From an uncultured Prevotellaceae bacterium (lineage in GTDB: Bacteria; Bacteroidota; Bacteroidia; Bacteroidales; Bacteroidaceae), in contig CAMVOK010000010.1 of NCBI GenBank assembly GCA_947169115.1, forward strand, positions 7,091 to 71,090: a DNA stretch of 64,000 nucleotides. The letters run 5' to 3'. Positions 5,834-57,601 of the stretch are shown here, piece after piece. Numbering within the stretch: position 1 is the stretch's first letter; each line of letters starts with the position of its first letter. A program made the translations under genes and the position numbers. The notes beneath the pieces were generated by a model. That model did not search any database, was not told where the DNA came from, and saw nothing but the letters and a program-made list of their open reading frames with translations.

Positions 5834-5866
5834 TCTCCTCCCCTTGCCTTCCCCGAGGGGAGGGTG
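5834..5866 (-). repeat. C-arm/G-arm hairpin element copy (intergenic)
   Basis: ctcctccccttgccttccccgaggggagggtg. Confidence 0.75.
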
Positions 5867-5893
5867 TGTATATGGACATAAAGATAGATAATC

Positions 5894-7600
5894 ATGTGTA
5901 AGAATAATATAGGAAAAGAAGATATGCAATCGTCAAACGTTACTGATGGGCTTGCTTTAAGCACACGTACCCTTGGCCAATGGCTTGAGCATTGGGCAGA
6001 GGTTACGCCTGACAAGGAATATATAGTATATTCAGATCGCGATTTGCGTTTCACCTGGAGTAAGTTCAACGAACGTGTTGACAACCTCGCCAAGGGACTG
6101 TTAGCTATTGGCGTGAAGAAAGGCAGCAATGTAGGTATTTGGGCTACGAATGTCCCAGACTGGCTTACGTTCCTATATGCTACGGCAAAGATTGGTGCAG
6201 TGTTGGTGACGGTGAACACCAACTACAAGCAGCACGAACTGGAGTATCTCTGCAAAGACTCAGACATGCATACGCTGTGCATTACGGACGGTACTTGGGA
6301 ATGTGACTATGTAGAGATGACTTACAAGATGCTGCCCGAACTGCGCGAATGCGAACGCGGACACTTGCAGAGCGAACGTTTCCCATACATGAAGAATGTG
6401 GTTTACATAGGTATGGAGAAATACCGTGGAATGTTCAATACTGCCGAACTGTTGCTTTTGGGTCAGAACATTGAGGATGAAGAACTGTTGGAGGCGAAGA
6501 AGGGGGTATCATGCCATGATGTAGTGAACATGCAATATACCTCGGGCACTACAGGTTTCCCCAAGGGTGTGATGCTTACGCATTATAATATCGCTAACGA
6601 CGGATTTTTCACGGGTGAGGCAATGGGCTTTACCGAGAAGGATAAACTCTGCGTGTGTGTGCCCCTATTCCATTGTTTTGGCGTGGTTCTTGCCACGATG
6701 AATTGCCTGACCCATGGCTGTACTGAGGTGATGGTGGAGAAGTTCGACCCATTGGTTGTATTAGCCAGCATTCATAAGGAGCGTTGTACGGCCCTCTATG
6801 GCGTGCCTACCATGTTTATTGCCGAACTCAATCATCCGATGTTCTCCATGTTCGACATGTCATGTCTGCGCACGGGCATTATGGCTGGTTCGCTCTGTCC
6901 CGTGGAACTCATGAAACAGGTGAGTGAAAAGATGTACATGACCATTACTTCGGTTTATGGTCTTACAGAATCGTCGCCAGGCATGACTCATACTTGTCTG
7001 GCGGACACATTCGAGCAACGTTGTACTACCGTCGGCCGCGACTATCCTTTCGTGGAAGTGCGTGTTATAGACCCCGAGACGGGAGAAGAATGTCCCGTAG
7101 GTGTGCAGGGTGAGATGTGTTGCCGCGGTTTCAATGTAATGAAGGGATATTATAAGAACCCACAGGCTACGGCAGAGGTGATAGACAAAGATGGTTTCCT
7201 CCATTCCGGTGACTTGGGCGTGAAGGACGAACAAGGCTACTATCGCATCACGGGTCGCATTAAAGATATGATTATACGTGGTGGTGAGAATGTTTATCCG
7301 CGCGAGATAGAAGAGTTCCTGTATCAAATGCCGGGTATTCGGGATGTACAGGTGGCTGCAGTTCCCTCGAAGAAATATGGCGAGGAGGTTGGGGCCTTCA
7401 TCATTCTGGAAGAAGGGGTTACCATGCAGCCTGAAGATGTACGCGATTTTTGCCGAGGCAAGATTTCACGATACAAGATACCCAAGTACGTGTTCTTTAT
7501 CGACCAGTTCCCTCTTACAGGAAGTGGTAAGATACAGAAATTTAAACTAAAGGAGATGAGTCTTGAACTCTGCAAACAGCAGGGAATAGAGGTTATCTAA
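5894..7600 (+). CDS. AMP-dependent synthetase/ligase (acyl-CoA synthetase family)
   Basis: AMP-binding motif [18 protein letters not shown], plus [12 protein letters not shown]...[29 protein letters not shown] and a terminal GKIQKFKL. The start could be 5894 or the ATG at 5924. Confidence 0.9.
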
Positions 7601-9855: not shown

Positions 9856-11154
9856 TTATTTTTGTATAGTGATGATGAACAGTTTATCGTTGTGCCTGAT
9901 TTTAGTAGGAAGCGGTATGCTGATGTGCCAACCTTTCCGACCTGTATCAACAGGCTGCAAATCATAGCGTATTTCTTCGACAGTGGCATAAAGGGCACCT
10001 GTGGTTGGACCAGTGACCAAGATTCGGTCGCCCACATGAAGTTCACATGCCTCTATCTTGAACTCTGCCACTTTTAGTTTAGAGTAATAACGAATACCCC
10101 GGCCACAATAGGTTTTCCGTTCTGTTGCCGACGAACCATGATTCTTGGTCCATTCGCCCAATAACTGACCTTGGTAATAACCATCCCAAAAACCACGGTT
10201 AAAGACACGTGCTAAGCGTTCGTTCCATTGTTGTTTGCGCTCTTCTGTGAAACTACCCTCCTGTACACTCTGGATGGCCTCCTTGTAACAACGGACTACG
10301 GTATCTACATAGTCGGCTCCTCGGGCTCTGCCTTCAATCTTGAATACACGTACACCAGCAGCCATCATTCTGTCGATGAAATCAATGGTTTTAAGGTCCT
10401 TGGGACTCATGATGTATTTGTTGTCAACTTGTAGCTCAGTTCCCGTTTCGGTATCATGCACGGTGTAGGAACGGCGACATAGTTGCATGCACTCACCACG
10501 ATTGGCCGAACGTCCCATGTTGTCGAGACTTAGATAACACTTGCCACTGACTGCCATACAGAGGGCACCATGACAGAACATCTCAATGCGTACCAGTTGG
10601 CCACTGGGACCTGTGATGTGTTGTTCCTCAATCTGCCTGTATATCTCGGCCACCTGTTCCATACGTAGTTCACGTGCCAAGACAACGACATCGGCAAAAT
10701 GGGCATAGAAACGCAGGGCCTCGATGTTGGAGATGTTGAGTTGAGTGGAGAGATGAACCTCCAGACCTATCTGTCGGGCATAAGTCATGGCTGCCACATC
10801 CGAAGCGATGACGGCAGATATCTGGGCTGCCTTGGCTGCATCCAGTATCTGTCGCATGAGTTCTATATCTTCGTCATATATAATAGTATTAACGGTCAGA
10901 TAACTTTTCACTCCAAAAACCTGGCATTCTCGGGCAATGTGGTGAAGGTCATCGATGGTGAATGCCGAGGCAGAGTGAGCTCGCATGTTTAATCGCTCAA
11001 TGCCGAAGTATATGCTGTCGGCACCGGCACGTAGGGCGGCAGCCAAAGACTCGGGGCTACCTACAGGAGCCATTATTTCATAGGCGCCCCCACCCCCTTT
11101 CCCCTCCCGAGGAAGGGGAGTAGTCACATTTGTATAATCGATATTATTTGTCAT
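9856..11154 (-). CDS. Peptidase U32 family protein (collagenase-like)
   Basis: YEIMAPVGSPESLAAALRAGADSIYFGIERLNMRA and MFCHGALCMAVSGKCYLS are U32 hallmarks. The first ~20 codons come from a repeat element (see findings). Confidence 0.85.
   Translation of the reverse strand: MTNNIDYTNVTTPLPREGKGGGGAYEIMAPVGSPESLAAALRAGADSIYFGIERLNMRAHSASAFTIDDLHHIARECQVFGVKSYLTVNTIIYDEDIELMRQILDAAKAAQISAVIASDVAAMTYARQIGLEVHLSTQLNISNIEALRFYAHFADVVVLARELRMEQVAEIYRQIEEQHITGPSGQLVRIEMFCHGALCMAVSGKCYLSLDNMGRSANRGECMQLCRRSYTVHDTETGTELQVDNKYIMSPKDLKTIDFIDRMMAAGVRVFKIEGRARGADYVDTVVRCYKEAIQSVQEGSFTEERKQQWNERLARVFNRGFWDGYYQGQLLGEWTKNHGSSATERKTYCGRGIRYYSKLKVAEFKIEACELHVGDRILVTGPTTGALYATVEEIRYDLQPVDTGRKGWHISIPLPTKIRHNDKLFIITIQK
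11085..11154 (-). repeat. Hairpin/G4 element copy with conserved left flank; forms the start codon and first ~22 codons of the U32 peptidase
   Basis: The minus strand reads atgacaaataatatcgattatacaaatgtgactactccccttcctcgggaggggaaagggggtgggggc. Confidence 0.8.
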
Positions 11155-11175
11155 CGTTTATTATTTTTTCGGTAT

Positions 11176-12210
11176 TTACGCCCTCCCCTCGGGGAGGGTT
11201 GGGATGGGGGTTTCGTCCATTATCTTGAACAGTTCTTCGACCGTTTCGGCGCGAAGCATCCGGATGCGGGTTTCGCGGAAGTTAGGAATTCCCTTGAATA
11301 GAGGGGAGGCGGCCAGATGACGACGGCTGTGCAAGATGCCGCGATACTCGCCGAGACGTTCTACGCTGGTCAGCACTTGCTGGCGTAGGACGTTGAGGCA
11401 CCATAGCCCCCCTTCGCTCCCCCCGAGGGGGGAAGAATCGCCTCCCCTCGGGGAGGTTGGGAGGTGGCTGAGGAGGGTTTTTATCTCCTTGAATATCCAA
11501 GGTCTTCCAAAAGTGGCACGACCGACCATTATGGCATCGACTCCGTAGCGTTCGAAGCACTCTTTGGCTCTTTCGGGAGTGGTGATATCGCCGTTGCCGA
11601 TAATGGGAATGTGGATGCGCGGATTGCGCTTTACCTCGCCGATGAGGGTCCAGTCGGCTTCGCCTGTGTACATTTGGCTGCGTGTACGACCATGGATGGT
11701 AAGGGCCTGAATGCCGCAGTCTTGCAGCTGCTCGGCAAGTTCGGTGATGATGAGGTGTTCCTGATCCCAGCCTAAACGAGTCTTTACGGTTACAGGTGTG
11801 TTGGGCACTGCATTTACCACGGCTCGTGTAATTTCCAGCATGAGGGGGATGTTTTGCAGCATTCCTGCTCCAGCCCCTTTCCCAGCTACTCGTTTTACGG
11901 GACAACCGAAGTTGATGTCCAGAATATCGGGATGAGCCTGTTCAACAACAATCTGTGCAGCATCACGCATGGCTTCAACGAAACGTCCATATATCTGTAT
12001 GGCAACAGGACGCTCCTCGTCGCATACCTGTAATTTCTCAATACTACGATTGACTCCTCGAACAAGTGCATCGCTCGACACAAACTCGGAATATACGAGA
12101 TCGGCTCCCATCTGTTTGCACAACAGGCGGAAACCGATGTCCGTCACATCCTCCATTGGGGCGAGGAAGACGGGATAAGGCGTATCAAAGTGAACGGGGC
12201 CGATGTTCAT
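11176..12210 (-). CDS. dusB: tRNA-dihydrouridine synthase (DusB-like) carrying repeat-derived insertions
   Basis: PVFLAPMEDVTDIGFRLLCKQMGADLVYSEFVSSDAL, DINFGCPVKRV and TIHGRTRSQMYTGEADW are Dus TIM-barrel motifs. Its ATG overlaps the upstream mod stop codon (ATGA). Confidence 0.85.
   Translation of the reverse strand: MNIGPVHFDTPYPVFLAPMEDVTDIGFRLLCKQMGADLVYSEFVSSDALVRGVNRSIEKLQVCDEERPVAIQIYGRFVEAMRDAAQIVVEQAHPDILDINFGCPVKRVAGKGAGAGMLQNIPLMLEITRAVVNAVPNTPVTVKTRLGWDQEHLIITELAEQLQDCGIQALTIHGRTRSQMYTGEADWTLIGEVKRNPRIHIPIIGNGDITTPERAKECFERYGVDAIMVGRATFGRPWIFKEIKTLLSHLPTSPRGGDSSPLGGSEGGLWCLNVLRQQVLTSVERLGEYRGILHSRRHLAASPLFKGIPNFRETRIRMLRAETVEELFKIMDETPIPTLPEGRA
11180..11210 (+). repeat. Hairpin/G4 element copy forming the last codons and stop of dusB
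   Basis: ccctcccctcggggagggttgggatggggg. Confidence 0.8.
11406..11466. repeat. Two head-to-head hairpin element copies in frame inside dusB
   Basis: gccccccttcgctccccccgaggggggaag + cgcctcccctcggggaggttgggaggtgg. Encodes SPRGGDSSPLGGSEGG. Confidence 0.8.
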
Positions 12211-14168
12211 AGTGCGTAGGTGGTTTCGTCACCACAGATATTACGAATCTTCATGCGGAGTGGCTTCTGGTCGCACTTGATGGTGGCATCCCAGAAGTCT
12301 TGGGTCTTCTTGCCATTAAGAATGACATAGCCCAAGCGGTCAATCTTCACTTCCGCATCGCTGTGCCAGGGAGCTTGCTTGTCAGCGGTGGAGCAGTCCA
12401 GACTGACCCATTCGATGGTTTCAAGTCCCTCATCGCTTATCTCAATAGGATTGAACGCTTTGCCTTTGGCTATGGACTGCTGCTGACCCTTCATGTTCAC
12501 TTCCTCAATCTTGCGCAGCACACGGTCGCTGTGGAAACTCTTCAGGTCCACTTTCCAGCCTTTGAACAGGTTGTCTTGTGTTTCCGTTAGTTCCCACTCG
12601 ACCTCGTCTTCCACCACCACTTCGTCCAGCACCTGCTTTAGGTCGCGCAGTTCTATGTCGATGATACTACGAGTGTTTTTTTCCTTGATGAACTGTTCTA
12701 TTTCCTCACGATCTGTGATATCGATGTAATATACAATGACGCGCCGTACATCGTCTGGCAGATAAGGCAGTTTATCAATAATGTTGTTCATTTGCGGTTT
12801 GTCGAGCAGACGTGTAGAACTGTCCATCAGGTTAGGCAGATAGACTGGCATCATGCCGTGTTGGGAATGAATGATACCGCCTGCCCAAAAGTCGCTCAGA
12901 CTGTCAAGGAAACACAACCCTTTTATGAGGTGCTTCAATTTGTCCATCGTCTGAACGGGATTGCGATAAAGAGACACACCGTCTTTTACTTCCAGGACAT
13001 CGAACTCTGCTTTGTCAGCCAATAGGCGGTCTCTTACGGTCTGAATGCTATTGATTCCAATGTCGCAGTGGATAAAGTTACGCCCCAACTTATTGGATAC
13101 TGCAGCTGTTACGCCGCTACCACCAAAGAAATCAGCAACAAGCATTCCTTCGTTACTGCTAGCTTTGATGATACGCTCCAATAAAGCCTCAGGCTTCTGA
13201 GTGGCATAGTCAACACGTTCTTCTGCTTGGGAGTTTACAGCATTTACATCAGTCCAAATATCATCAAGAGGTATACCCTCGGTTTCGTCAAGATATACTT
13301 TTAGGCGCATTCCTCCGGATGCAGTATAATAAATTTTGTTTTCTTTCTTTAATTGTTCTATAGTAGCTTGTGTTGTAGCTGTTCCCAAGAAGGCATCCTT
13401 GAATCTACGTTCTTTGCTATCAATTACTTCTACATGAGAAAATCTTTGTTCGATGTACTCATCGCTATAAGGCAAATATTGCGTATTATATAGGAATTCA
13501 TCACTTTTACCATAAACAAGAATGTTATCGTGGTTCTTTCCCATTGCATTTTTTCCCTTAAACCCACTAGATGTTTGTCGTTTCCATGTAACGTCATTAA
13601 TGAAGTTCTCTTCCCCAAAGATTTCATCCATCAAGATCTTTACATAGTGAACGATATGCCAATCCAAATGCACATAGATACTTGCCTCATCGCTCATGAT
13701 GCTCTTCATTGCCATCAGGTTCTCGTACATCCAATTGAGATAACGCTCTTTGTCCCATACGTCACCATACATCTTTTCCTCGAAGGCGCGTAGTTCCTCA
13801 ATGTCAAGTTCGCTTTCTGCCTGGGCAATAGCCGCTGCCACCTTGGGATTACGACGGATATACACCTTCTTGGCATAGTCGGCACCGCTGGCAAAGGGCG
13901 GGTCAACATATATGAGGTCAACAAAGATGCCTTTGTCTCTGAGATAAGCACAAGCCGACACACACTCGCCACGAATAACCAGATTGTTGGGATTCTGTCC
14001 AATCTGCTCTTTCAACTCCATCTCATAGAGGGGCATACCTCTCTGCACGCGCTCAATGACTTGGTCATTGTCACGATAACGCAACACCCGCTTGGTGCGT
14101 ACAAAATTGTCTAATATGGCCTGTCCTTCAAGCGTATTGGGGAAATAGGGAACATATTTAATAGCCAT
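12207..14168 (-). CDS. Type III-like restriction-modification methyltransferase (Mod, beta-class N6A/N4C MTase) with an extra ~250-aa C-terminal region
   Basis: Motif IV LIYVDPPFASGADY (aa ~85) comes before motif I VADFFGGSGVTAAV (aa ~340). That order is the beta-class arrangement of Type III Mod proteins. Confidence 0.85.
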   Translation of the reverse strand: MAIKYVPYFPNTLEGQAILDNFVRTKRVLRYRDNDQVIERVQRGMPLYEMELKEQIGQNPNNLVIRGECVSACAYLRDKGIFVDLIYVDPPFASGADYAKKVYIRRNPKVAAAIAQAESELDIEELRAFEEKMYGDVWDKERYLNWMYENLMAMKSIMSDEASIYVHLDWHIVHYVKILMDEIFGEENFINDVTWKRQTSSGFKGKNAMGKNHDNILVYGKSDEFLYNTQYLPYSDEYIEQRFSHVEVIDSKERRFKDAFLGTATTQATIEQLKKENKIYYTASGGMRLKVYLDETEGIPLDDIWTDVNAVNSQAEERVDYATQKPEALLERIIKASSNEGMLVADFFGGSGVTAAVSNKLGRNFIHCDIGINSIQTVRDRLLADKAEFDVLEVKDGVSLYRNPVQTMDKLKHLIKGLCFLDSLSDFWAGGIIHSQHGMMPVYLPNLMDSSTRLLDKPQMNNIIDKLPYLPDDVRRVIVYYIDITDREEIEQFIKEKNTRSIIDIELRDLKQVLDEVVVEDEVEWELTETQDNLFKGWKVDLKSFHSDRVLRKIEEVNMKGQQQSIAKGKAFNPIEISDEGLETIEWVSLDCSTADKQAPWHSDAEVKIDRLGYVILNGKKTQDFWDATIKCDQKPLRMKIRNICGDETTYAL

Positions 14169-14201
14169 TTTACACGTTGCCTTGTTTGTTTAGAATTTCT
14201 A

Positions 14202-14220
14202 AGGTGCAAAAATTGCACCT
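14202..14220 (-). other. 7-bp-stem hairpin in the ORF6N-mod intergenic gap
   Basis: aggtgca-aaaat-tgcacct. No evidence for its function. Confidence 0.3.
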
Positions 14221-14234
14221 CAAATATAGTACAC

Positions 14235-14855
14235 TCACTTATTGACAATAAACCCTATTGGATTTCTTTGTTTGTTAATCTCCCTTTGTGTTGACTCTGC
14301 TTGTAGTTGAGCGATTGCATCGTTGATATTTTCCAGTTGCCTTGCAATTATCTCTTGGTCATTGGCAACCATCTCATTGATATCGTTCTGGTCACGTAGT
14401 GTTTCATCCATATCGATACGCAATTGTTTGATTTCGGAATGAATCTGCTCTATCTGCAGTTGAGTGTCAGTCATTGCCAATAAGGCTTGCTGCATTTGGA
14501 AGAAGGCTCGCATGATATTGATGTTTACCTGAATGGCAATAGGAGTCCTGAGAAGTCCAGAGAGCATGGCTATGCCCTCCTGAGTGAACGCGTATGGAAG
14601 ATATTTGCTGTGCTTTCCCCGTCCATTCTCTATGGTGAAAAAATTGCACCTTAAAAAATCATACTCTTCTTTGGTCAGTTCGAACATGAAATCTTCTGGG
14701 AAACGTTCCTTGTTCATGCGGACAGCTCTTTTCAGATTCTTCGTCTCTATTCCATATAACATACTGAGATCGCTGTCTATCATTATCTTTCGACCTCGAA
14801 GTTCGTAAATATGTCCTTTAATGGACTCTGTACTTAGTATTACAGTATTATCCAT
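14235..14855 (-). CDS. ORF6N (KilA-N/Bro-N-like DNA-binding) domain protein with a C-terminal coiled coil
   Basis: IYELRGRKIMIDSDLSMLYGIETKNLKRAVRMNKERFPEDFMFELTKEE...GKHSKYLPYAFTQEGIAMLS matches the ORF6N family pattern. The C-terminus is heptad-like (QLQIEQIHSEIKQLRIDMDE...). Confidence 0.8.
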   Translation of the reverse strand: MDNTVILSTESIKGHIYELRGRKIMIDSDLSMLYGIETKNLKRAVRMNKERFPEDFMFELTKEEYDFLRCNFFTIENGRGKHSKYLPYAFTQEGIAMLSGLLRTPIAIQVNINIMRAFFQMQQALLAMTDTQLQIEQIHSEIKQLRIDMDETLRDQNDINEMVANDQEIIARQLENINDAIAQLQAESTQREINKQRNPIGFIVNK

Positions 14856-14875
14856 GTTACTTTCTCCTAATTATT

Positions 14876-17746
14876 CTATAATTCAGTTTCTGAACTCGCG
14901 CGTTCCAAATAGTTTTCATTAAAGAAGTTCTTGATTGCTTGCATCGTTTTTTGTCTGCGCTGCTCTGCATTGAGTGTGTCCTCCAAATAGAGAAAGTCGA
15001 AACGCTGGTATCCAAACTTGTCGTTGTTTTTCTTGACGAACTCTGACATGAAGTCGAGTTTGTCCTTGAACTTGGCGGCAAAGCCCTCGCCCTTGGTTTC
15101 GATGATGATAACCTTTTCTATCTGCTTCTGCTCATTACGGCTGAGCAAGAGGAAGTCGGGTACATACCTACCGATGTATCGCCAATTGTTACTTACACGT
15201 TTGTAGCAATCAATCTTGAAATCAGTCAGTGTATCGTCGCCATTGAAATAGACCTCCAACACCTTTTCCTTAATCAAAGGAATAACTTCTTGGGATAGGA
15301 AATGCCTCTCCAAACCGCTATCGAAGCGGTAAGGCAGATAATGGTACGTCTGACTACGCTCTGGATGTGGGTCGGATCTTGGATTGCGCAGCGCGGAAAC
15401 ATCTATGCCCAAGGCCTCCAGTTCTGCAATCTTTGCTTTCTGCTCTGTTGTCAACTCTTGCTGAGGAGGCTTCTCGTCCCATTCCATAATCTCATGAACG
15501 GCCTGCTGGTCGGGGAAGAACTTTTCGCTGTCCTCAACAGGCGATGCCAGTCGCTCAATTTGCAACAAACGGGCTTGTTTGGGCAGGATTTTCTCTTTCG
15601 TCGTAAAGTCTCGTTGAGGAGCAAACGCCTGACGGATAAGCGAACGGATGCGTTGGTGGTCGTACTTTCTGTTTTCCAGTAACACACCATCTTTCTCTGT
15701 AGTAATCTTTGCGAAGATATATTGCAGTTCTGTATCGCACTTTTTCAAATTGGCCACCGTCAACATTCCGAAACTCTCTTTGGCTATCTGATGGAGCCAC
15801 CATTGGAAGGAAGTACGTATTTCCTCTTTGTTTTCCTGTTCAACGGAAGCAATTAGATTACCTTCCATATCCTGTTGATGAATCAGGGAAATATCTGCCA
15901 GAGCCAGAATGTCCTTGCTTTGCAACAGTTGTGCAGGGTCGTTGGCATCGTCGATGATAAGTGTTTCGTAGCTGACCTTCAGTTGATAGAAATTTATCTC
16001 AGGCACCTGCATATGGAAGCGTTCTATCAGTTTTTGCTCCACGTTTGGTTTGCCGCCAAATTCCTTCAGCGTGATATTCTGCTGCTGTTGCAACTGGCGG
16101 TTTAGTTTCTCGGCATTGAACTTGTTGAGCCAGATGAGGGCGGTCTCCTGACTATTCTTTACAACCTGACGCAGACACCGGCAAGAGGTCTGGAGCACCA
16201 TATTCGTGGGACAGACGCCCTTTTGTGGCAGGATAACACCTGTCAGGCTTTTGCAGTCCCAGCCCTCCTTACCAATTTGGACAAGGAGCACTATCTTGTA
16301 TTTCGAGATAGAAGTGTCGAGAGAAGCAAAAGCTGTCTCAGAACCTTCATGCTGAGGGTATTGCTTATTTCCGCCGTGATAAGGCAGAATGGTATCTGTG
16401 GGGTTCAGTCCGTAGGATGCCACAATCTCTGACACCAACGGATAGATGCTTTCTTCAAGCGTCTCAATCTGACCGCAATAGATGGCCAGTTTGGCACAAG
16501 TACCATTCGAATACATGGTGTCGCGATACTTGTCGAGGAACTCACGTACACCGTTGGCAACAATCGTCTGGGTGTCGTTATCCTCAAACTTCACATCTGG
16601 GTTTTTCAGGAAGTTGCCAATACCCTCTACCAGCGGATAATAATACACCACGTTGGCAAGGTCGGTGTTCTTGATGGTCAGTGTTTCTGATATCTTCAAC
16701 GGCTCTGCACTATCCAAATAAGGCGTGCCTGAGAAACCGAGCACGGAGTTGAACGTATGCTTCTCCGTCCATTTGTTCACCACCTGACGGAGCTTAATTT
16801 CGCCATCAGCTGCATGATGAACCTCGTCGATATAAACGGCAAGGTGAGGGATGGAACCAATGAGTTCGCGCAGTTCTTTGGCCAATTCCATTCGTTTAAG
16901 TTCCTCTTCAGAGAAGAGCGATGGGTCTTGATTGGTATCGAAGCGATCAAGAATAACCTTTTCGGCATTGGTGATAGCCACCAGACCCTTCAAGTCTTCA
17001 AACGGTTGGTGGTTGTTGATTTTCTGGGCATTGGGGTTCTTGATGCGGTTGCTCTTGTTGGCCGTTTTCTGCTCATCCAGAATCTCGAACTTAATCAGTC
17101 GGCGCAATGGGGCAGCCTTGGCTTCAGGGATTATCCACGAGGGGTCAAACTCCTTGATATGCTTCAAACTGGGTACAATCGATGACTTCAAGCCCGACGG
17201 TGCCATCACCATGAAGTTATGAGCAAAGGCTGGATTGTTCGGCTCGTTCTGAGCAAAGTAGAGGTCAAGATAGATGAACGCGGCCATCAGATAGGTCTTG
17301 CCGGCTCCCATAGGCAGACTAAAGAGGTAGTCGGTGTAAGTGACTCCGTAGAATATCTTCAGGAACGTGGTCTCATAATTTATCTCGTCGGCGTGCTGCT
17401 TGATATATTGCTCCAGTTCAGGAGCCAATTGCTTGCCTTTTTTGTCATGTAGGCGAGAATACTGGAACAAAGCCACAGCAGCCTTGTTTGTGCTAAAAAT
17501 CTGGCGTACAGTTTCTGTCAGCTCCACCTGACCGATGTTGGTGTCGTTGAAAACACCATCGACAAAAAGTCGCCACAGAGGCTGGTTCTTGCAAGCTATC
17601 TTCAGAAACAAATATGTTTTGATGGCTTCCAACTGAGCATCGCGCATCATACCCCGCTGTTCTATATACTGCAGCAGTTCCTTGATGGTGCAATTGTCAG
17701 ACAAAAGCCACTCGTTGCGCTTCTTCTCGATGAGCTTATAGAACAT
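14876..17746 (-). CDS. Type III restriction enzyme Res subunit (SF2 helicase plus C-terminal PD-(D/E)xK nuclease)
   Basis: Walker A LPMGAGKTYLMA, DEAH-type box VYIDEVHH, motif III GFSGTP, motif VI-like QTSCRCLRQ. C-terminal nuclease signature RYVPDFLLL...VIIIETKGEG. Confidence 0.85.
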   Translation of the reverse strand: MFYKLIEKKRNEWLLSDNCTIKELLQYIEQRGMMRDAQLEAIKTYLFLKIACKNQPLWRLFVDGVFNDTNIGQVELTETVRQIFSTNKAAVALFQYSRLHDKKGKQLAPELEQYIKQHADEINYETTFLKIFYGVTYTDYLFSLPMGAGKTYLMAAFIYLDLYFAQNEPNNPAFAHNFMVMAPSGLKSSIVPSLKHIKEFDPSWIIPEAKAAPLRRLIKFEILDEQKTANKSNRIKNPNAQKINNHQPFEDLKGLVAITNAEKVILDRFDTNQDPSLFSEEELKRMELAKELRELIGSIPHLAVYIDEVHHAADGEIKLRQVVNKWTEKHTFNSVLGFSGTPYLDSAEPLKISETLTIKNTDLANVVYYYPLVEGIGNFLKNPDVKFEDNDTQTIVANGVREFLDKYRDTMYSNGTCAKLAIYCGQIETLEESIYPLVSEIVASYGLNPTDTILPYHGGNKQYPQHEGSETAFASLDTSISKYKIVLLVQIGKEGWDCKSLTGVILPQKGVCPTNMVLQTSCRCLRQVVKNSQETALIWLNKFNAEKLNRQLQQQQNITLKEFGGKPNVEQKLIERFHMQVPEINFYQLKVSYETLIIDDANDPAQLLQSKDILALADISLIHQQDMEGNLIASVEQENKEEIRTSFQWWLHQIAKESFGMLTVANLKKCDTELQYIFAKITTEKDGVLLENRKYDHQRIRSLIRQAFAPQRDFTTKEKILPKQARLLQIERLASPVEDSEKFFPDQQAVHEIMEWDEKPPQQELTTEQKAKIAELEALGIDVSALRNPRSDPHPERSQTYHYLPYRFDSGLERHFLSQEVIPLIKEKVLEVYFNGDDTLTDFKIDCYKRVSNNWRYIGRYVPDFLLLSRNEQKQIEKVIIIETKGEGFAAKFKDKLDFMSEFVKKNNDKFGYQRFDFLYLEDTLNAEQRRQKTMQAIKNFFNENYLERASSETEL

Positions 17747-17752: not shown

Positions 17753-18232
17753 TCATTTTGTGGAGAACGCCAATGCATACATTTTCATCTGCTTGAGCAT
17801 GGCCAAGAGTCCATTTGAACGGGTGGGAGAAAGATGTTCGCGCAGACCGATTTCCTCAATGAAATAAAGGTCGGCTGCAAGAATATCCTTGGGTGTTTGG
17901 TTGTTCAGCACACGTAGCAGGAGTGTGACAATACCTTTCACGATGAGAGCATCGCTCTCTGCCTGAAAATGGACACGCCCATCGATGAGGTCGGCCTGTA
18001 ACCATACGCGGCTTTGGCAACCATCGATGAGGTTCTGTTCCGTCTTATACTGTTCGGGCAAAGGCTCTTGGTCGCTACCCATCTCAATGAGCAGCTGGTA
18101 TCGGTCCATCCAGTCGTCAAGTTCTTGGAACTCTTCAATGATCTCGTCTTGCCTACGGCGTATTTCAGCCCCCTCCTGACCTCCCTGAGGGGAGGAAGTG
18201 ATTTCGTTTATATTATCGAGATTGTTAGTCAT
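17753..18232 (-). CDS. sufE: SufE-family cysteine desulfuration (sulfur acceptor) protein
   Basis: DRYQLLIEMG...LIDGCQSRVWL...DALIVKGIVTLLLRVLNNQTPKDIL...GLREHLSPTRSNGLLAMLKQMK includes the conserved Cys-loop GCQS. The N-terminal ~20 codons are repeat-derived. Confidence 0.85.
   Translation of the reverse strand: MTNNLDNINEITSSPQGGQEGAEIRRRQDEIIEEFQELDDWMDRYQLLIEMGSDQEPLPEQYKTEQNLIDGCQSRVWLQADLIDGRVHFQAESDALIVKGIVTLLLRVLNNQTPKDILAADLYFIEEIGLREHLSPTRSNGLLAMLKQMKMYALAFSTK
18168..18232 (-). repeat. Hairpin element copy with conserved left flank; forms the start codon and first ~21 codons of sufE
   Basis: The minus strand reads atgactaacaatctcgataatataaacgaaatcacttcctcccctcagggaggtcaggagggggctg. 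Confidence 0.8.
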
Positions 18233-18257
18233 ATTTATTTCATATATTTATATTAGT

Positions 18258-18295
18258 AACTACTCCCTCCCCTAGGGAGGGAATGGGGTAGGGGC
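18258..18295 (+). repeat. Hairpin/G4 element copy (intergenic)
   Basis: gtaactactccctcccctagggagggaatggggtaggggc. Confidence 0.8.
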
Positions 18296-18298
18296 TTT

Positions 18299-23525: not shown

Positions 23526-23568
23526 TGTAATTTATTTTTTTAGAGTTGTTGATAATCTTTTTAATGGT

Positions 23569-23599
23569 GACTATAGTTTCTATAGTACCTATAGTAATT
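23569..23599. repeat. 9-bp tandem word array (ctatagt type)
   Basis: ctatagttt ctatagtac ctatagtaa. Abuts the stop of one FKBP gene, upstream of the next. Confidence 0.85.
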
Positions 23600-24182: not shown

Positions 24183-24209
24183 ATTTATGAGTTTTAATAA
24201 ATTCGGGTG

Positions 24210-24217
24210 CAAAGGTA
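24210..24217 (-). promoter_or_regulatory. Bacteroidota -7 promoter box
   Basis: The minus strand reads tacctttg. Confidence 0.5.
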
Positions 24218-28078: not shown

Positions 28079-28102
28079 TTATTGATTGAGGCAACCAATC
28101 TT

Positions 28103-28263
28103 CAATGGTTGCTACAACCATCATGGATTGATTGCTACAACCATCATGGATTGATTGCTGCAACCATCATAGATTGATTGCTACAACCATCATGGATTGA
28201 TTGCTGCAACCATCATAGATTGATTGCTGCAACCAACATTATTTGATTGCAGCAATCATTATG
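28103..28263. repeat. Tandem array of a 23-bp unit (about 6.5 copies) with a 46-bp higher-order alternation
   Basis: Units gattgattgctacaaccatcatg (28126, 28172) alternate with gattgattgctgcaaccatcata (28149, 28195). Degenerate copies flank them. There are no spacers. Confidence 0.9.
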
Positions 28264-31541: not shown

Positions 31542-31575
31542 AATGTTAAATGTTAAATGTCAAATGTCAAATGTA
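31542..31575. repeat. 7-bp tandem word array abutting the upp start codon
   Basis: aatgtta aatgtta aatgtca aatgtca aatgta. Confidence 0.9.
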
Positions 31576-33549: not shown

Positions 33550-35712
33550 ATGAAACGGATTTCGCTTTCGTTATTGTTGCTTGTTGGTGCAGTTAACTTT
33601 CAGCTTTCTACTTTCTTGCCCCACTTCGTTCTGCAAGCGTGGCCTACGGCTGCCGATTATTGTTTTCAACTTGGTGTAGCCTATGCCCAGTTTCATGAAC
33701 CCGTGCAGTTCAGTGTTAAACAGAACAAGCTTTCAGAATCTGAAATCGAGGTGGTATTTACGGGAAAGGTAGATGCCGGATGGCATGTCTATAGTACTGA
33801 TATCCCCGATGGCGGACCAACAAAGGCCGAGCTGACGCTGGAGAAGCAACAAGGTGTGAAGCCCAAAGGCGCATTGCGAGCTACGGGCAAGGTACACCGC
33901 GAGATGGACGACATGTTTGACATGGAACTTTCCTATATGGAGGGAACAGCCTCGTTTAGCCAGAAGTTCACGGTGACGGAGCCTACCTACGAGGTGGCTG
34001 GCTATCTGACATACGGGGCTTGCAATGACGAAAACTGCATTCCTCCCACGAATGTCGATTTCAGTTTCAAAGGAGAGGTAAGCCTCACCCCCGACCCCTC
34101 TCTTGCAGAGAAGGGAGCAGATACGTCTGAAAATAAGACGGATGCCGAAATTGACGAGGCGGAAAGTGATTCTGCAAATGTATCTACCCCCCTCCCTACA
34201 GGGGAGGGGCTTGGGGAGGGTCTTCATCTATGGGTACCCGTCATTGACGAACTGAAAGCCTTCTCCGATGGAACTTCCTCGTCTCAAGGGGGAAGCCAAA
34301 GCGGGGCTTCCGCTCTACTTTGGATATTTCTGATGGGGCTTCTGGGTGGGTTTGCAGCCCTGCTTACCCCCTGCGTGTGGCCAATCATTCCCATGACCGT
34401 TAGTTTCTTCCTGAAGCGAGGGAGCAAGGAGCAGGGGGCAAGGAACAAGGGCGTTCGGGATGCCATGTTATATGGCCTAAGCATCATTGTCATTTACATG
34501 GCTCTTGGTTTGCTCGTTACCCTGCTGTTTGGTGCAAGTGCGTTGAATGCGCTCAGTACCAATGCCATCTTTAACATTTTCTTCTGTCTTCTGTTATTGC
34601 TGTTTGCGGCTTCCTTTCTGGGCGGCTTCGAAATAACGTTGCCCAGTAGTTGGTCAAATGCCGTGGATAGTAAGGCCACAAGTACCACTGGTCTGCTCTC
34701 GATCTTCCTCATGGCTTTCACCTTGTCGTTGGTCAGTTTCTCCTGCACAGGACCCATCATTGGTTTCCTGTTGGTAGAGGTAGCCTCGACGGGTAATATT
34801 GTCGGCCCTGCCATTGGCATGTTCGGCTTTGCTCTTGCCTTGGCCTTGCCCTTCACCCTGTTCGCCCTCTTCCCCTCGTGGTTGAAGGCTGCTCCCAAAA
34901 GCGGAAACTGGATGAATTGCATTAAGGTGACATTGGGATTCCTGGAACTGGCATTCTCCTTGAAGTTCCTTTCTGTAGCCGATTTGGCATACGGTTGGCA
35001 TATTTTGGACCGCGAAGTGTTCCTTTCCCTGTGGATAATCATCTTCGCCCTGCTCGGTGCCTACTTCATTGGCTGGATACGCTTCCCTCATGATGAGGAT
35101 GAATACGACGAGATGGGGGAGGTCATACAGCATCCACGTACTACTGTCACCCGTTTCTTCTTGGCTTTAGTGTCGTTTGCCTTTGCCCTTTACATGGTGC
35201 CTGGGCTATGGGGAGCCCCCTGTAAGGCTGTCAGTGCTTTTGCTCCACCCATGTCAACTCAGGATTTCAACCTCTCCAAGAGTGAGTCCCTGCACTTCGA
35301 GGATTACGAAGAGGGTATGGCATACGCCCGTGAGCACCACATGCCAGTGTTCCTCGACTTTACGGGGTATGGTTGTGTAAACTGTCGTAAGATGGAGGCT
35401 GCTGTATGGACAAACTCCGAGGTGCAGCAATTGATGGGGGATAACTTTGTGCTCATCTCTCTGTTTGTGGATGAAAAAACTCCTCTGAAGGAACCGAAAA
35501 TTGTTGATGAAAACGGAGAAAAACGTAAGCTGCGTACTGTGGGGGACCAATGGAGCTATTTGCAGCGTTATAAGTTTGGTGCCAATGCCCAGCCTTTCTA
35601 TGTCCTGGTAGATAATGAGGGCCATCCCTTGGCTCCCTCGTATAGTTATGATGAGGATGTGCAGGCATTCAAGCAGTTCCTCGAAACGGGTATCAGGAAC
35701 TACAAGAAATAG
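33550..35712 (+). CDS. dsbD: Thiol:disulfide interchange protein DsbD-like (N-terminal domain, CcdA-type membrane core, C-terminal thioredoxin)
   Basis: Membrane-core motifs LLTPCVWPIIPMT and SFSCTGPI. C-terminal thioredoxin CxxC DFTGYGCVNCRKME. The linker carries a repeat-derived insertion (STPLPTGEGLGEGL). Confidence 0.85.
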   Translation: MKRISLSLLLLVGAVNFQLSTFLPHFVLQAWPTAADYCFQLGVAYAQFHEPVQFSVKQNKLSESEIEVVFTGKVDAGWHVYSTDIPDGGPTKAELTLEKQQGVKPKGALRATGKVHREMDDMFDMELSYMEGTASFSQKFTVTEPTYEVAGYLTYGACNDENCIPPTNVDFSFKGEVSLTPDPSLAEKGADTSENKTDAEIDEAESDSANVSTPLPTGEGLGEGLHLWVPVIDELKAFSDGTSSSQGGSQSGASALLWIFLMGLLGGFAALLTPCVWPIIPMTVSFFLKRGSKEQGARNKGVRDAMLYGLSIIVIYMALGLLVTLLFGASALNALSTNAIFNIFFCLLLLLFAASFLGGFEITLPSSWSNAVDSKATSTTGLLSIFLMAFTLSLVSFSCTGPIIGFLLVEVASTGNIVGPAIGMFGFALALALPFTLFALFPSWLKAAPKSGNWMNCIKVTLGFLELAFSLKFLSVADLAYGWHILDREVFLSLWIIIFALLGAYFIGWIRFPHDEDEYDEMGEVIQHPRTTVTRFFLALVSFAFALYMVPGLWGAPCKAVSAFAPPMSTQDFNLSKSESLHFEDYEEGMAYAREHHMPVFLDFTGYGCVNCRKMEAAVWTNSEVQQLMGDNFVLISLFVDEKTPLKEPKIVDENGEKRKLRTVGDQWSYLQRYKFGANAQPFYVLVDNEGHPLAPSYSYDEDVQAFKQFLETGIRNYKK
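34174..34220 (+). repeat. Hairpin/G4 element copy in frame in the dsbD linker
   Basis: gcaaatgtatctacccccctccctacaggggaggggcttggggaggg. Confidence 0.8.
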
Positions 35713-35717
35713 GGAAC

Positions 35718-35760
35718 TCCATCCCCTTTGACCCCTCCCGAGGGAGGGGAGTGGTTACTA
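35718..35760 (-). repeat. Hairpin element copy (intergenic)
   Basis: The minus strand reads tagtaaccactcccctccctcgggaggggtcaaaggggatggag. Confidence 0.8.
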
Positions 35761-35836
35761 ACGCAAATATAAAACGAAAAATATTAATAACATAAATAAC
35801 AATTGTAAAAAAGCCTTACTCTTCAATCGTATATAC

Positions 35837-35868
35837 GCCCTCCCCCTGGGGAGGGGATGGGGAGGGGG
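35837..35868 (+). repeat. Hairpin/G4 element copy (intergenic)
   Basis: cgccctccccctggggaggggatggggaggggg. Confidence 0.8.
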
Positions 35869-35887
35869 TTGTAAATTTTATTAAAAG

Positions 35888-54343: not shown

Positions 54344-54520
54344 TCTCTTTGCGTAGCATTACTAATGTTGAAGTTTCAACGTTACTAATGTTGTGCTTCT
54401 TTGCATTTAGGGTCTATTGCTTCACTTTACATAGATACGGAATCTATTGATTTTTATAAGGATATTCAATGCCTGGAAATAATTTTTAACTTTTAATTTT
54501 TAAATTTTAATTAATTTTCG

Positions 54521-54528: not shown

Positions 54529-54603
54529 CATCCGCATTTGCGAAACAGTACCAATGAGAGGCGGCTGTTCGACAAACAAGTTTAACACAAATTATTAAGT
54601 ACT

Positions 54604-54873: not shown

Positions 54874-54879
54874 TCACAA

Positions 54880-54917
54880 TCCCCCTCCCTATCCCTCCCA
54901 CCTCTCGGGGAGGGGGA
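54880..54917 (-). repeat. Hairpin/G4 element copy between the rpsO stop and its terminator
   Basis: tccccctccctatccctcccacctctcggggaggggga. Confidence 0.75.
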
Positions 54918-54920
54918 CAA

Positions 54921-54946
54921 GCCACAGTGTTTTGCTGTGGCTTTTT
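54921..54946 (+). terminator. Rho-independent terminator of rpsO
   Basis: gccacag-tgttttg-ctgtggc followed by tttttcttttt. Confidence 0.7.
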
Positions 54947-54953
54947 CTTTTTC

Positions 54954-55010
54954 AAATAGTAAATAGTAAACAGTAAATGGTAAATAGTAAATTGTTAAAA
55001 AGTAAATTAG
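54954..55010. repeat. 7-bp tandem word array containing the YfhO-like start codon
   Basis: aaatagt aaatagt aaacagt aaatggt aaatagt aaattgt taaaaagt aaattag. Confidence 0.9.
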
Positions 55011-57601
55011 TTGATGTCTTGATGGTGGCCATGTTTGCCCTTATCAGCTTGGCTTATTTCTGGAACCCCATCATGGAAGGAATGGTTCTGACGGGTACCG
55101 ACCACAATGCTGCTGTGGGCAGTAATGTGGAATTGAGCGAATATCGTAAGACGCACAACGGTGAACGTACCCGCTGGACAAACTCCCTGTTTTCGGGTAT
55201 GCCCACCTATCAGATGTCACCCTCTTACAACAGCACCGACACGTTAGCAACATTGGAGAAGATTTATCAGCTGGGTCTTCCAGAAGTGGCCGGCTATGTG
55301 TTTATGATGCTTCTGGGTTTCTACATTCTACTTCGTGCCTTTGATTTTCGCGCATGGATGGCTGCCCTTGGTGCCATCTTGTGGGCGTTTTCCAGTTACT
55401 ATTTCATAATCATTGCCGCCGGACATATCTGGAAACTACTGACGCTTTGTTTCATTCCGCCCACAATTGCGGGCATGGTGCTCTGTTATCGTGGCAAGTA
55501 TTTGTGGGGTATTGCTGTCACTGGTATCTTTACGGGTTTGCAAGTGTTCTCGAACCACATCCAGATGTCATATTACTTCCTGCCCGTCATGGGGCTGATG
55601 GCGATAGCGTTCTTAGCCCCCTCCCGACCTCCCCGAAGGGAGGAGGAAGCATCCCCCTCGGGGGATAAGAGGTGGGCTGTTCGTTGGCTCAAAGGCTCAC
55701 TTGCTGCCTTTATCGGCGGATTGCTTGGAGTGGGCATTAATATCTCCAATCTCTACCACACTTACGAGTACAGTAAGGAGACGATGCGTGGCAAGAGCGA
55801 ACTGACGCAGAAGACGAAGGACGCTGCCGACCAGACGGGCAGTGGTCTGGAACGCTCGTACATTACAGCTTGGAGTTATGGTATAGGTGAGACGTGGACG
55901 TTGCTTGTACCCAACACAAAGGGTGGAGCCTCCGTTCCTCTTAGTCAGAACGAAACGGCCATGGCGAAAGCCAAGAATGAGTACCGTCCTCTCTACCAAC
56001 AACTTGGCCAGTATTGGGGAGAACAGCCAGGAACGAGTGGCCCCGTGTATGTGGGTGCTTTTGTGTTTTTCCTTTTCATTTTGGGACTATTTATTGTAAA
56101 AGGTTCGATGAAATGGGCTCTTTTGATTGCCACCATTTTGAGCATCCTGCTCTCGTGGGGTAAGAACTTCATGCCTTTTACCGACTTTTTCCTCGACTAT
56201 GTGCCCATGTACGATAAGTTCCGTACCGTGGCCTCCATTCTTGTCATAGCCGAGTTTACCATCCCTTTGTTGGCGATGCTCGCCTTGAAGACGTTGGTTA
56301 AGGATGAAGGGTTAAGGATGAAGGATTATTCGAAGCCCATGTTTATCAGCCTCGGGCTGACCGCAGGCGTGTGCTTCCTTTTCTGGCTGATGCCAGACTT
56401 TTTCTTTGGCAGTTATATCTCCACGAGCGAGATGCAAGCCTTGAAGGGATTGGAGGAATATGGTTGGCCTGTAGGAGATGTCATGCAGAATCTTAGTGAT
56501 ATGCGTCGCGCCATGTTCACGGCCGATGCCATGCGCTCGTTCATCATTATTCTCATAGGTTTTGGCATCCTCATGCTCTATAGGGCCAAGAAACTGAAAG
56601 AGGTAACTATGGTAGCATGTCTCTCGCTGCTTTGTCTCATCGATATGTGGTCGGTGAACAAACGTTATCTGAGCGATAGCGACTTCGTTCGTCCGCGTCC
56701 TAACACCGAGACATTCCCACTGACTGAGGTTGACCAACGCATCCTGCAAGATCCAGACACATATTATCGTGTGCTAAACCTTACTGTCAGCACCTTTAAC
56801 GACAATACCACTTCATATTATCACAAGTCGATTGGTGGCTACCATGCTGCCAAGTTGCGCCGCTATCAGGAACTCATAGAGGAACATATCCAAAGTGAGA
56901 TGCAGACCGCATGGTCTTTGGCTCCCGAGATGGAGAATGCCGATTCTCTGCTGCCTGTGCTGAACATGCTGAACATGAAGTATATGATTCTGCCTTTGAA
57001 GGATAATGGTAAAATTGAAGTGGAAAATCCGTCGGCCAACGGTAATGCGTGGTTCGTCAACGAGGTTCGTTATGTGGAGGATGCTGATGATGAATTGGCC
57101 GGATTGCATGGGCTCGACACGAAGCATGTGGCGGTAGCCGATAAAAAGATGGAATCCATCTTAGGAGCCACAGCCCCCCTCTCTACCTCCGTCGCTGCGC
57201 TCCCCAACGCTAACGCCCGTCCTTGCGTTGCCCCCGAGGGGGAAGATTCTATCAAGAGCACCTCCCCTCGGGGAGGTCGGGAGGGGGCTGCCGTGTTGAC
57301 TAGTTATGAAGCCAACGAACTGCAATACGACGTGGAGAGTCGCGACGGCGGTGTACTCGTATTCAGCGAGATTTATTATCCGGGTTGGACTTGCACCGTC
57401 GATGGTCAGTCCGTAGAGATTGGCCGTGTCAATTATGTGCTTCGTGCCATTCACATTGATGGCGGAAGGCACAAGGTTGTTCTCACCTTCAAGCCCCGTT
57501 CTGAGCGCATAACAGAAACAATAGCATATTCTGCTCTTGGCCTTCTTGCGTTGCTCTTCTTAGGATTGCTGATAAGGCTATTTGTGAAGCGAAAGAACTA
57601 A
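54977..57601 (+). CDS. YfhO-family polytopic membrane protein (putative glycosyl-carrier/glycosyltransferase)
   Basis: 874 aa with many TM segments, an N-terminal periplasmic loop and a C-terminal single TM. The architecture resembles YfhO-like proteins. It contains two repeat-derived insertions and a repeat-derived N-terminus. Confidence 0.65.
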   Translation: MVNSKLLKSKLVDVLMVAMFALISLAYFWNPIMEGMVLTGTDHNAAVGSNVELSEYRKTHNGERTRWTNSLFSGMPTYQMSPSYNSTDTLATLEKIYQLGLPEVAGYVFMMLLGFYILLRAFDFRAWMAALGAILWAFSSYYFIIIAAGHIWKLLTLCFIPPTIAGMVLCYRGKYLWGIAVTGIFTGLQVFSNHIQMSYYFLPVMGLMAIAFLAPSRPPRREEEASPSGDKRWAVRWLKGSLAAFIGGLLGVGINISNLYHTYEYSKETMRGKSELTQKTKDAADQTGSGLERSYITAWSYGIGETWTLLVPNTKGGASVPLSQNETAMAKAKNEYRPLYQQLGQYWGEQPGTSGPVYVGAFVFFLFILGLFIVKGSMKWALLIATILSILLSWGKNFMPFTDFFLDYVPMYDKFRTVASILVIAEFTIPLLAMLALKTLVKDEGLRMKDYSKPMFISLGLTAGVCFLFWLMPDFFFGSYISTSEMQALKGLEEYGWPVGDVMQNLSDMRRAMFTADAMRSFIIILIGFGILMLYRAKKLKEVTMVACLSLLCLIDMWSVNKRYLSDSDFVRPRPNTETFPLTEVDQRILQDPDTYYRVLNLTVSTFNDNTTSYYHKSIGGYHAAKLRRYQELIEEHIQSEMQTAWSLAPEMENADSLLPVLNMLNMKYMILPLKDNGKIEVENPSANGNAWFVNEVRYVEDADDELAGLHGLDTKHVAVADKKMESILGATAPLSTSVAALPNANARPCVAPEGEDSIKSTSPRGGREGAAVLTSYEANELQYDVESRDGGVLVFSEIYYPGWTCTVDGQSVEIGRVNYVLRAIHIDGGRHKVVLTFKPRSERITETIAYSALGLLALLFLGLLIRLFVKRKN
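55616..55672. repeat. Two head-to-head hairpin element copies in frame inside the YfhO-like gene
   Basis: gccccctcccgacctccccgaagggaggagg + catccccctcgggggataagaggtgggc. Encodes PSRPPRREEEASPSGDKRW. Confidence 0.8.
57172..57287. repeat. Composite ~116-bp hairpin-element insertion in frame inside the YfhO-like gene
   Basis: Ends with cacctcccctcggggaggtcgggagggggctg and begins with the inverted G-tail gcccccctctctacctcc. Encodes APLSTSVAALPNANARPCVAPEGEDSIKSTSPRGGREGA. Confidence 0.7.

Follow-up and report, generated by a model that had tools for sequence, protein, structure and literature searches.

How does one short hairpin come to occupy both gene junctions and the interior of protein-coding frames within a single piece of a genome? 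The question is raised by a 64,000-nt stretch of contig CAMVOK010000010.1 (hereafter the window; loci outside it carry L numbers), derived from an uncultured bacterium of the Prevotella/Paraprevotella group. An initial annotation, made from the letters of the sequence, had listed dispersed copies of a hairpin element with a G-rich tail and likened them to a mobile repeat. We find 14-15 such units at nine sites in the window, where none would be expected by chance. Comparison with other genomes and with metagenomes suggests that these copies are probably the end modules of small selfish DNA cassettes of gut Bacteroidales, which carry a gene of the DUF559 nuclease family between two such modules. 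More tentatively, a translation-transparent cassette with inverted hairpin-plus-tail ends and driven by its DUF559 nuclease may constitute an undescribed class of mobile element, one that would colonize operon junctions and protein loops, including those of aminoacyl-tRNA synthetases and cell-wall genes, and spawn solo derivatives as well as derivatives resembling MITEs (MITE, miniature inverted-repeat transposable element).

Read in one orientation, a unit consists of an optional left flank, a C-arm, a short loop, a G-arm, 2-4 nt and a G-rich tail that usually terminates in GGGGGCT. Every position at which a copy had been listed holds a unit, and the proposed core hairpin followed by a G-run tail was borne out: the strict core CCCTCCCCNNNGGGGAGGG, with two mismatches allowed, matched the window three times against 0.01 matches expected, with stems measuring 6-9 bp and loops of 2-5 nt. 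The left flank (GTAnCTAC or CAAATGTnnCTAC) is also present, but in about five copies only rather than often. A profile of the nhmmer type built from the window copies recovered 14 units (E values 1e-8 to 2e-3) and no further convincing site elsewhere in the 64 kb, and a sequence-independent detector, which required an arm made up of C and T alone and 6 nt or longer, a loop of 2-7 nt, the perfect complement of the arm and a G-rich tail, found 10 units in the window compared with 0 in 100 first-order Markov simulations. Rfam gave 0 matches in the window at gathering score, and no tRNA was found there. In agreement with the earlier statement that no described family could be recognized, we found no description of the repeat, or of a hairpin-ended DUF559 cassette, in Rfam or the searchable literature, the coverage of which is incomplete; bulk MITE catalogues of Bacteroidota exist, without a description of this hairpin-unit family (PMC11602168).

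The head-to-head pairs pointed out in the initial annotation turned out to be the rule, with 12 of the 15 units forming six inverted pairs and the remaining three being solo. Each pair starts with AGCCCCC and ends with GGGGGCT, and its outer C-tail is complementary to its outer G-tail. As in MITEs, the pairs (66-155 bp) are terminal inverted repeats around a core without coding capacity and below ~500 bp. Three pairs have an AT-rich center of 40-85 nt, each at a junction of co-directional genes; the other three are intragenic, one in Dus and two in a YfhO-family gene. The Dus pair and the first YfhO pair are bare pairs with 7-nt spacers, a bare pair being a palindrome of ~60 bp. All four insertions at coding sites (one in Dus, one in DsbD and two in YfhO) are in frame and contain no stop codons. 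As single strands, the pairs fold either into one long palindrome or into two local hairpins closed by a tail-tail helix, with outer tails and arms paired (fold z-scores -1.5 to -3.6), while the fold energy of single units is unexceptional for their composition (z -0.3 to -2.0).

Outside the window, the units are associated with a gene. In L129, a 130-aa open reading frame (ORF) lies between the two units of one pair and belongs to Pfam family DUF559 (PF04480, E = 7.5e-37). Among 125 contigs chosen solely for having a unit, eight carry DUF559 ORFs, nine genes in total, all of which abut units; none was found in ~1.37-1.39 Mb of DNA around the Dus orthologue of 80 related species, where there are few or no units. 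The association also holds in the other direction: eight loci fetched by DUF559 protein identity alone all have the right module, and seven of them the left module too (Table 1). The full cassette has the order left module (C-rich tail and hairpin), DUF559 gene of ~125 aa, stop, ATG, A/T-rich codons and right module (hairpin and G-rich tail), the right module being the inverted complement of the left and the stop codon either overlapping the ATG or shortly preceding it. Because the modules seldom have stops and the 3′ end supplies an ATG, such a cassette can be tolerated between operon genes or in surface loops, with the host gene left intact. On this reading, the true level of organization is the inverted pair, its two units being the ends of one cassette. 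In L099 and L151 a unit-DUF559-unit block interrupts a Polysacc_synt_C domain midway, in frame, so that the host frame is continuous, and in L225 the host reading frame is also continuous through the block. The same layout is seen in a LeuRS-like gene (L111, 8950-10920) with two diverged DUF559 inserts, each flanked by another, diverged unit subfamily (CCCTCTCCAC..GTGGAGAGGG plus CAGGGGGTGAGGG). A protein search returned at least 3,099 DUF559 homologues at E <= 1e-10, most of which are free-standing, 121-131 aa long and encoded by Prevotella, Bacteroidaceae, Paludibacteraceae and Draconibacterium; precomputed domain lists show some fused to GT2, FemAB, DegT or Polysacc_synt_C domains.

A profile built from 30 members of this DUF559 clade matched two structures in the PDB, 3hrl (an uncharacterized "endonuclease-like protein", E = 1e-28) and 3r3p, the catalytic domain of the homing endonuclease I-Bth0305I (E = 2.7e-7). 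An AlphaFold model (pLDDT 85) matched the same two structures first, followed by 5-hydroxymethylcytosine-specific restriction enzymes and Vsr; the Foldseek match to 3r3p had a probability of 1.00 and a TM-score of 0.77. Residues D59, E70, D72, H76 and D85 are invariant in the clade. By these matches, the cassette protein is homologous to I-Bth0305I and predicted to be a Vsr-like (DUF559) endonuclease. I-Bth0305I is a homodimer that recognizes a pseudopalindromic target with a footprint of ~60 bp (PMC3239194), and the free-standing relatives found in "fractured genes" are preceded by a hairpin and overlap, at their 3′ end, the coding region downstream of them (PMC2677866).

The window copies are gene-less, and two of them resemble the cassettes in their 3′ part. 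In all eight junction elements compared (five complete cassettes, a diverged element of L008 and two window elements), an ATG lies 4-12 A/T-rich codons ahead of the right hairpin, after the DUF559 stop or the center, and in the five complete cassettes and both window centers this element-borne ATG opens the downstream host ORF. The window SufE ORF thus starts with MTNNLDNINEIT-SSPQGGQEGA and the U32 ORF with MTNNIDYTNVTT-PLPREGKGGGGA. The 36-nt center segments of the pairs at 11085 and 18165 are identical at 26 of 36 positions, a value reached in 0 of 20,000 shuffles, and the sequence that follows the window left hairpin (GTTACTAATAT) is similar to the final codons of the DUF559 gene in L227 (TTACTAATATGA). 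Because a cassette-type 3′ start-codon module is kept in both, we read these two pairs as putative cassettes that would have lost their gene, which is the weakest link in the identification. The nine window insertions as a whole we read as internally deleted, non-autonomous or decayed derivatives.

Table 1. Hairpin-unit sites in the window and loci fetched by DUF559 protein identity
Locus	Feature	Position	Strand or units	Location	Description
Window	Solo unit	5835..5878	-		C-tail, hairpin CCTTCCCC-GA-GGGGAGGG; nhmmer E = 1.3e-7
Window	Inverted pair, AT-rich center	11085..11215	units 11085-11131 (-), 11172-11212 (+)	Dus/U32 peptidase junction	
Window	Minimal inverted pair	11402..11472	units 11402-11435 (-), 11437-11472 (+)	In frame, Dus aa 247-269	
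Window	Inverted pair, AT-rich center	18165..18297		Between M28 peptidase stop and SufE	
Window	Solo unit	34176..34224	+		CAAATGTATCTAC flank, hairpin, G4-type tail
Window	Inverted pair, 85-nt AT-rich center	35717..35871		Wholly intergenic, DsbD stop (35712) to M16 peptidase start (35888)	
Window	Solo unit	54881..54928	-	Directly 3′ of rpsO (S15) stop	
Window	Minimal inverted pair	55612..55682		In frame, YfhO-family protein aa 213-235	LAPSRPPRREEEASPSGDKRWAV
Window	Composite pair	57172..57290		In frame, YfhO aa 732-772	
L212	DUF559 locus			argG-argC	
L216	DUF559 locus			korA-korB	Protein different from L223
L223	DUF559 locus			korA-korB	Protein different from L216
L224	DUF559 locus			Inside ValRS	Draconibacterium halophilum (CP048409)
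L225	DUF559 locus			Inside GT2 glycosyltransferase	
L227	DUF559 locus			mraY-murD	ATGA overlaps both sides
L230	DUF559 locus			GT4-Bac_transf	
L233	DUF559 locus			Between V-ATPase subunits B and D	

Among the window elements, the 11085 pair takes the place of the Dus C terminus and stop and gives the U32 peptidase ORF its ATG and initial 24 codons (MTNNIDYTNVTTPLPREGKGGGGA); the right unit of the 18165 pair (DNA fold z = -3.6) is in frame with SufE and corresponds to its residues 13-22, after MTNNLDNINEIT. Within Dus, the second pair lies in a variable linker that follows the TIM barrel, and its single strand folds into one composite palindrome; the first YfhO pair folds instead into two local hairpins with a tail-tail helix closing them. 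The composite element in YfhO contains, besides a C-tail and variant arm, 39 nt of filler, the internal hairpin GCCCCC-GA-GGGGG and, as its right unit, 57248-57290. Of the solo units, the one at 34176 is in frame in a DsbD linker (aa 209-226, ANVSTPLPTGEGLGEGLH), the one at 5835 sits directly 3′ of the stop of a helix-turn-helix-cupin gene and 5′ of an AMP-binding gene, in left-end orientation relative to these + strand genes, and the one at 54881 is followed by a separate, ordinary hairpin and T-run terminator.

We compared these sites with relatives of the source organism. The nearest species-level genomes are metagenome-assembled genomes of uncultured Prevotellaceae/Bacteroidaceae, with a Dus amino acid identity of at most 84%. 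With the generic detector, unit density is 1.56 per 10 kb in the window vs 0.15 per 10 kb in the 80 related species, where units are concentrated in three species. At the Dus/U32 junction, the element is absent in L007, L009, L010 and L013, and L008 has a diverged copy, the stems of which differ by compensating changes. At the M28/SufE junction, six relatives (L007, L009, L010, L012, L014 and L043) have 20-35 nt in place of the 133-nt pair of the window, and their SufE, devoid of the element, starts with MTINEIQDEII. The rpsO spacer of L238 is without the solo unit, and both YfhO inserts are missing in most orthologues, some of which have different unit-type inserts at the same two loops. The units are thus a dispersed, lineage-variable repeat at intergenic and coding sites, displaying between lineages the presence/absence variation that the initial annotation had set as a check, with element-free junctions in relatives and different alleles in the YfhO loops.

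One of these sites allowed a closer comparison. The left 73 nt of the second YfhO element are 97% identical (71/73) between the window (57172-57246) and L238, compared with 77% for the YfhO flanks (300 nt on each side; P ~1e-6 for the contrast). In L238 the right unit of this element is absent, and no co-conversion tract was found between the window and L238 at the element. The identity points either to recent acquisition at the same site or to strong constraint on the element DNA, and its contrast with the flanks may be regarded as the sole indirect sign of homing-type copying into an empty allele.

The family reaches far beyond these relatives. A scan of public metagenomes with the subfamily string GGGAGGTCRGGAGGGGGCT matched at least 120 contigs from gut, rumen and other samples, with a G+C content of 0.33-0.73 (0.33-0.61 for those that also pass the unit model). 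The matched contigs contain many further units, mostly in the same inverted pairs with variable centers, and the pair ends are strikingly constant (AGCCCCCTCCCGACCTCCCCGAGGGGAGG ... CCTCCCCTCGGGGAGGTCGGGAGGGGGCT). In-frame inserts are likewise found in other proteins, among them MurC, a CobB-like amidase and the N terminus of argininosuccinate lyase. Since a MAFFT alignment of 80 units was out of structural register, covariation was measured per sequence: the 114 distinct units have 28 different stems, all self-complementary, with a mean stem of 6.6 bp compared with 2.3 bp when partners were shuffled (maximum 3.3 bp in 1,000 shuffles). As 28 stems differ and all are nevertheless self-complementary, the hairpin is conserved by compensating changes.

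Several other features were seen on these contigs. Large spacers between units in L167 and L101 were considered as a possible transposase and ruled out, as they are ordinary host genes. In L147 (2264-2430), three units lie in direct, not inverted, tandem at ~57-nt spacing, with successive CTTGACT heptamers after them. A second palindromic repeat (AATCGCATTGCAAAAGGTGGCC / AAAGGCCACCTTT) adjoins unit ends on several metagenome contigs (L093, ~6215-6240; L182, ~800-830 and 3660-3690; L152, ~1560-1640; L172, ~555-570). The ValRS gene of L224 (2304-5388) is called as three ORFs, being divided by the DUF559 cassette and by a bare pair of units. Where the frame breaks, the C/G homopolymer arms differ in length (C4/G5 and C6/G5), and a one-base correction at each break would give a single ORF; the breaks thus reflect errors in the assembly or else slippage at the arms of the hairpins.

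The initial annotation had further proposed that the C-arm may pair either with the G-arm or with the tail, so that the element would switch between a hairpin and a G-quadruplex (G4). Its count of at least six copies obeying the G4 rule (G3+N1-7) is accurate, with exactly six of the 15 window units qualifying and eight motifs altogether in the window vs 0.85 in simulations; the strongest is the right unit of the 35717 pair. Of the 114 distinct units across the family, only 22 qualify, so that a quadruplex tail is not a family feature and the proposed switch is unsupported as one. The commonest subfamily has three G3+ tracts only, and folding with RNA parameters gives a quadruplex as the predicted minimum-energy structure in four window units and not in this subfamily. 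Quadruplex potential therefore looks like an incidental by-product of the G-rich tail in some subfamilies. These data also bear on the idea that the units are host regulatory structures (a hairpin/quadruplex switch, a terminator, or an mRNA stabilizer or processing site) rather than mobile DNA. The six G4-competent window units, four of them with a predicted quadruplex fold, the ability of the C-arm to pair with the tail instead of the adjacent G-arm and the many copies at operon junctions would suit such a role. We nonetheless consider it very improbable, given the low proportion of G4-competent units, the lack of a T-run in the units together with the separate terminator after the 54881 copy, the copies within coding regions, the absence at orthologous sites in most relatives and the unexceptional fold energies of single units.

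If the window copies are cassette ends, a mechanism can be envisaged by analogy with I-Bth0305I. A DUF559 dimer would recognize the palindromic modules and make a break, and host repair would copy the element into new (ectopic) or allelic sites. Gene-less pairs would be mobilized or converted in trans, or would decay in place. The survivors would be only those insertions that leave the host gene functional, and it is because of this filter that elements would be found at junctions and in loops. Neither an intein nor an intron accounts for the intragenic copies: the former was ruled out by the absence of splice-junction residues and the continuous host frame, the latter because all intragenic copies are in frame and stop-free, which would be needless for a spliced element.

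Several points weigh against the cassette interpretation. Neither an excision product nor a rule for target sites nor a duplication was found; inspected by eye, the flanks of ~15 complete pairs show no consistent direct repeat, some extend the palindrome, and only the GAAAT beside the SufE unit could be a target duplication. A nuclease by itself, moreover, is not able to join DNA. In the source organism the cognate nuclease is unproven: a tblastn search with DUF559 gave no match in the window, and since the endonuclease gene is missing there, the window copies are at most derivatives of cassettes. The likeness of the two window centers to cassette 3′ ends is short and AT-rich, and L216, L095 and L097 have no adjacent left module. 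Finally, the DUF559 genes look old and are single-copy per locus and ~50-60% identical to one another, unlike the units, which are nearly identical across organisms; this contrast fits persistence over long times, or spread of the units by a mechanism of their own, and the DUF559 gene could be a homing passenger that invades pre-existing pairs rather than the mover of units.

In its full form, this passenger model holds that the DUF559 gene targets the palindromic center of existing pairs, which serve as landing sites with the units as homology arms, and that the units spread by other means. It is favored by the homology of the clade to I-Bth0305I, a homodimer with a pseudopalindromic target and ~60 bp footprint (PMC3239194), to which a bare pair, as a ~60 bp palindrome, would correspond, and by the position of DUF559 nearly always between a left and a right unit. 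We consider it unlikely, as it leaves the arrival of pairs at new loci unexplained, two window centers keep the cassette-type 3′ start-codon module, which points to gene loss rather than to never-invaded sites, and some cassettes (L216 and L097) are without a left unit. It is similarly doubtful that the units are repetitive extragenic palindromic (REP) sequences and the pairs REPINs (REP doublets forming hairpins), moved as single-stranded hairpins by a single-copy REP-associated tyrosine transposase (RAYT, an HUH Y1 transposase) encoded elsewhere, with DUF559 merely residing at favored sites. The units are short GC-rich palindromes, mainly in inverted doublets that fold as one long hairpin (six pairs in the window), and no target duplication is seen. 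Moreover, RAYT subclasses 2.4 and 2.6 occur in Bacteroidetes, with 2.6 flanked by "atypical secondary structures" without GTAG (PMC6006769), and intragenic in-frame REPs are known (PMC3733652). However, no conserved 5′ GT[AG]G was found: CTAC occurs 5′ of the C-arm in ~4 of 15 copies, in which GTAG would come 3′ of the hairpin when the opposite strand is read, TTAC, ATAC, ACAC or CCAC stands there in the rest, and a GTAG-type tag is missing from most metagenome units. A motif scan of 2.36 Mb, including 0.9 Mb of unit-bearing contigs, revealed a single RAYT-like ORF (L099, 4653-5462), which is not flanked by units, whereas all nine DUF559 genes on unit-bearing contigs abut units and the unit-DUF559-unit arrangement is inserted as one block within host genes. 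The REP/MITE-like label of the initial annotation holds as regards a dispersed, lineage-variable repeat at intergenic and coding sites; a GTAG tag, a RAYT link and target duplication were not found. We classify the hairpin units as REP/MITE-like derivatives of a free-standing Vsr-like endonuclease element.

Comparison with known systems places the cassettes near several of them. With I-Bth0305I and "fractured genes" (Dassa 2009, PMC2677866; Taylor 2011, PMC3239194) they share a homologous nuclease whose gene lies between or inside conserved genes and, with the latter, a hairpin 5′ of the endonuclease start and a 3′ end overlapping the downstream coding start (PMC2677866). In contrast to the I-Bth0305I systems of phage replication genes, the cassettes have no intron or intein, the host protein being read through; they are bounded by a conserved inverted hairpin-plus-tail module that is also dispersed in many gene-less copies; and their hosts are cellular Bacteroidales housekeeping operons. 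Like REPs and REPINs, the units are short GC-rich palindromes in inverted doublets, without target duplications, vertically persistent and sometimes in frame in genes; unlike them, they were found without GTAG tag or RAYT association, the associated gene encodes a PD-(D/E)xK/Vsr-type nuclease, and each unit has a long, asymmetric tail, rich in C or in G, pairing with that of its partner. MITEs such as the Correia elements of Neisseria similarly have terminal inverted repeats around a short, AT-rich, non-coding core, lie at gene junctions and are co-transcribed with neighbors, but for the units no target-site duplication or DDE transposase parent with the same ends was found, the full-length relatives encoding DUF559 instead of a transposase, and the ends are themselves hairpins. 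Rickettsia palindromic elements are in-frame palindromic repeats in many unrelated protein genes, where they encode peptides at tolerated positions (in part PMC3733652), and no enzyme is known for them. The units resemble them in being palindromic repeats in frame in unrelated protein genes; their sequence, size classes and host phylum are unrelated, and, in contrast, full-length nuclease-bearing relatives exist for the units.

If the link to the nuclease is true, it would assign a selfish-element function to a large DUF559 clade of gut and rumen Bacteroidales (the close homologues counted above), and part of this large family would thereby gain its first biological role. The cassettes would also explain widespread short Pro/Gly/Ser-rich peptide inserts and N-terminal extensions in housekeeping proteins, and would represent a third route into essential genes besides introns and inteins, in which translation of the inserted DNA does no harm and a restart codon comes with the insert. 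For annotation, the repeats mislead gene callers into false starts and split genes, assembly frameshifts are likely at their homopolymer arms, and they mark strain-level variation in abundant gut taxa.

Other repeats and insertions were noted in the same DNA. Short arrays of tandem repeats, with a period of 7 nt (9 nt in L008) and unrelated in sequence (AATGTCA, TAATTTT, AAATAGT, GGGTTAA, TGAAAAA, AATTAAG) occur at gene junctions, one of them in frame inside YfhO; they lie at 31542-31574, 54480-54512, 54954-55007, 56296-56328, 58459-58508, 59515-59543 and 60601-60634 in the window, and at ~9490-9560 in L013 and ~9460-9500 in L008. At the M28/SufE junction, relatives have differing arrays where the window has the hairpin element, and such arrays may be a second kind of junction filler in the clade. 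Between SufE and Dus, the window holds a methyltransferase (N6_N4_Mtase), an ORF6N protein and a ResIII helicase (12207-17746); because the six nearest species have SufE next to Dus, this segment looks like an inserted restriction-modification or defense island. A 23-bp minisatellite (28081-28250; 6.2 copies, 91% match; TTGCTACAACCATCATGGATTGA) lies 3′ both of the ORF at 27431-28078 and of a convergent BspA-type leucine-rich-repeat gene (28523-30727, minus strand). Direct repeats link three adjacent ORFs at 21763-24212, the first of which encodes an FKBP-type isomerase, and two adjacent ORFs at 60652-62797, and 75-nt coding repeats are found at 45491-45705 in the gene for a Lys/Ala/Glu-rich protein.

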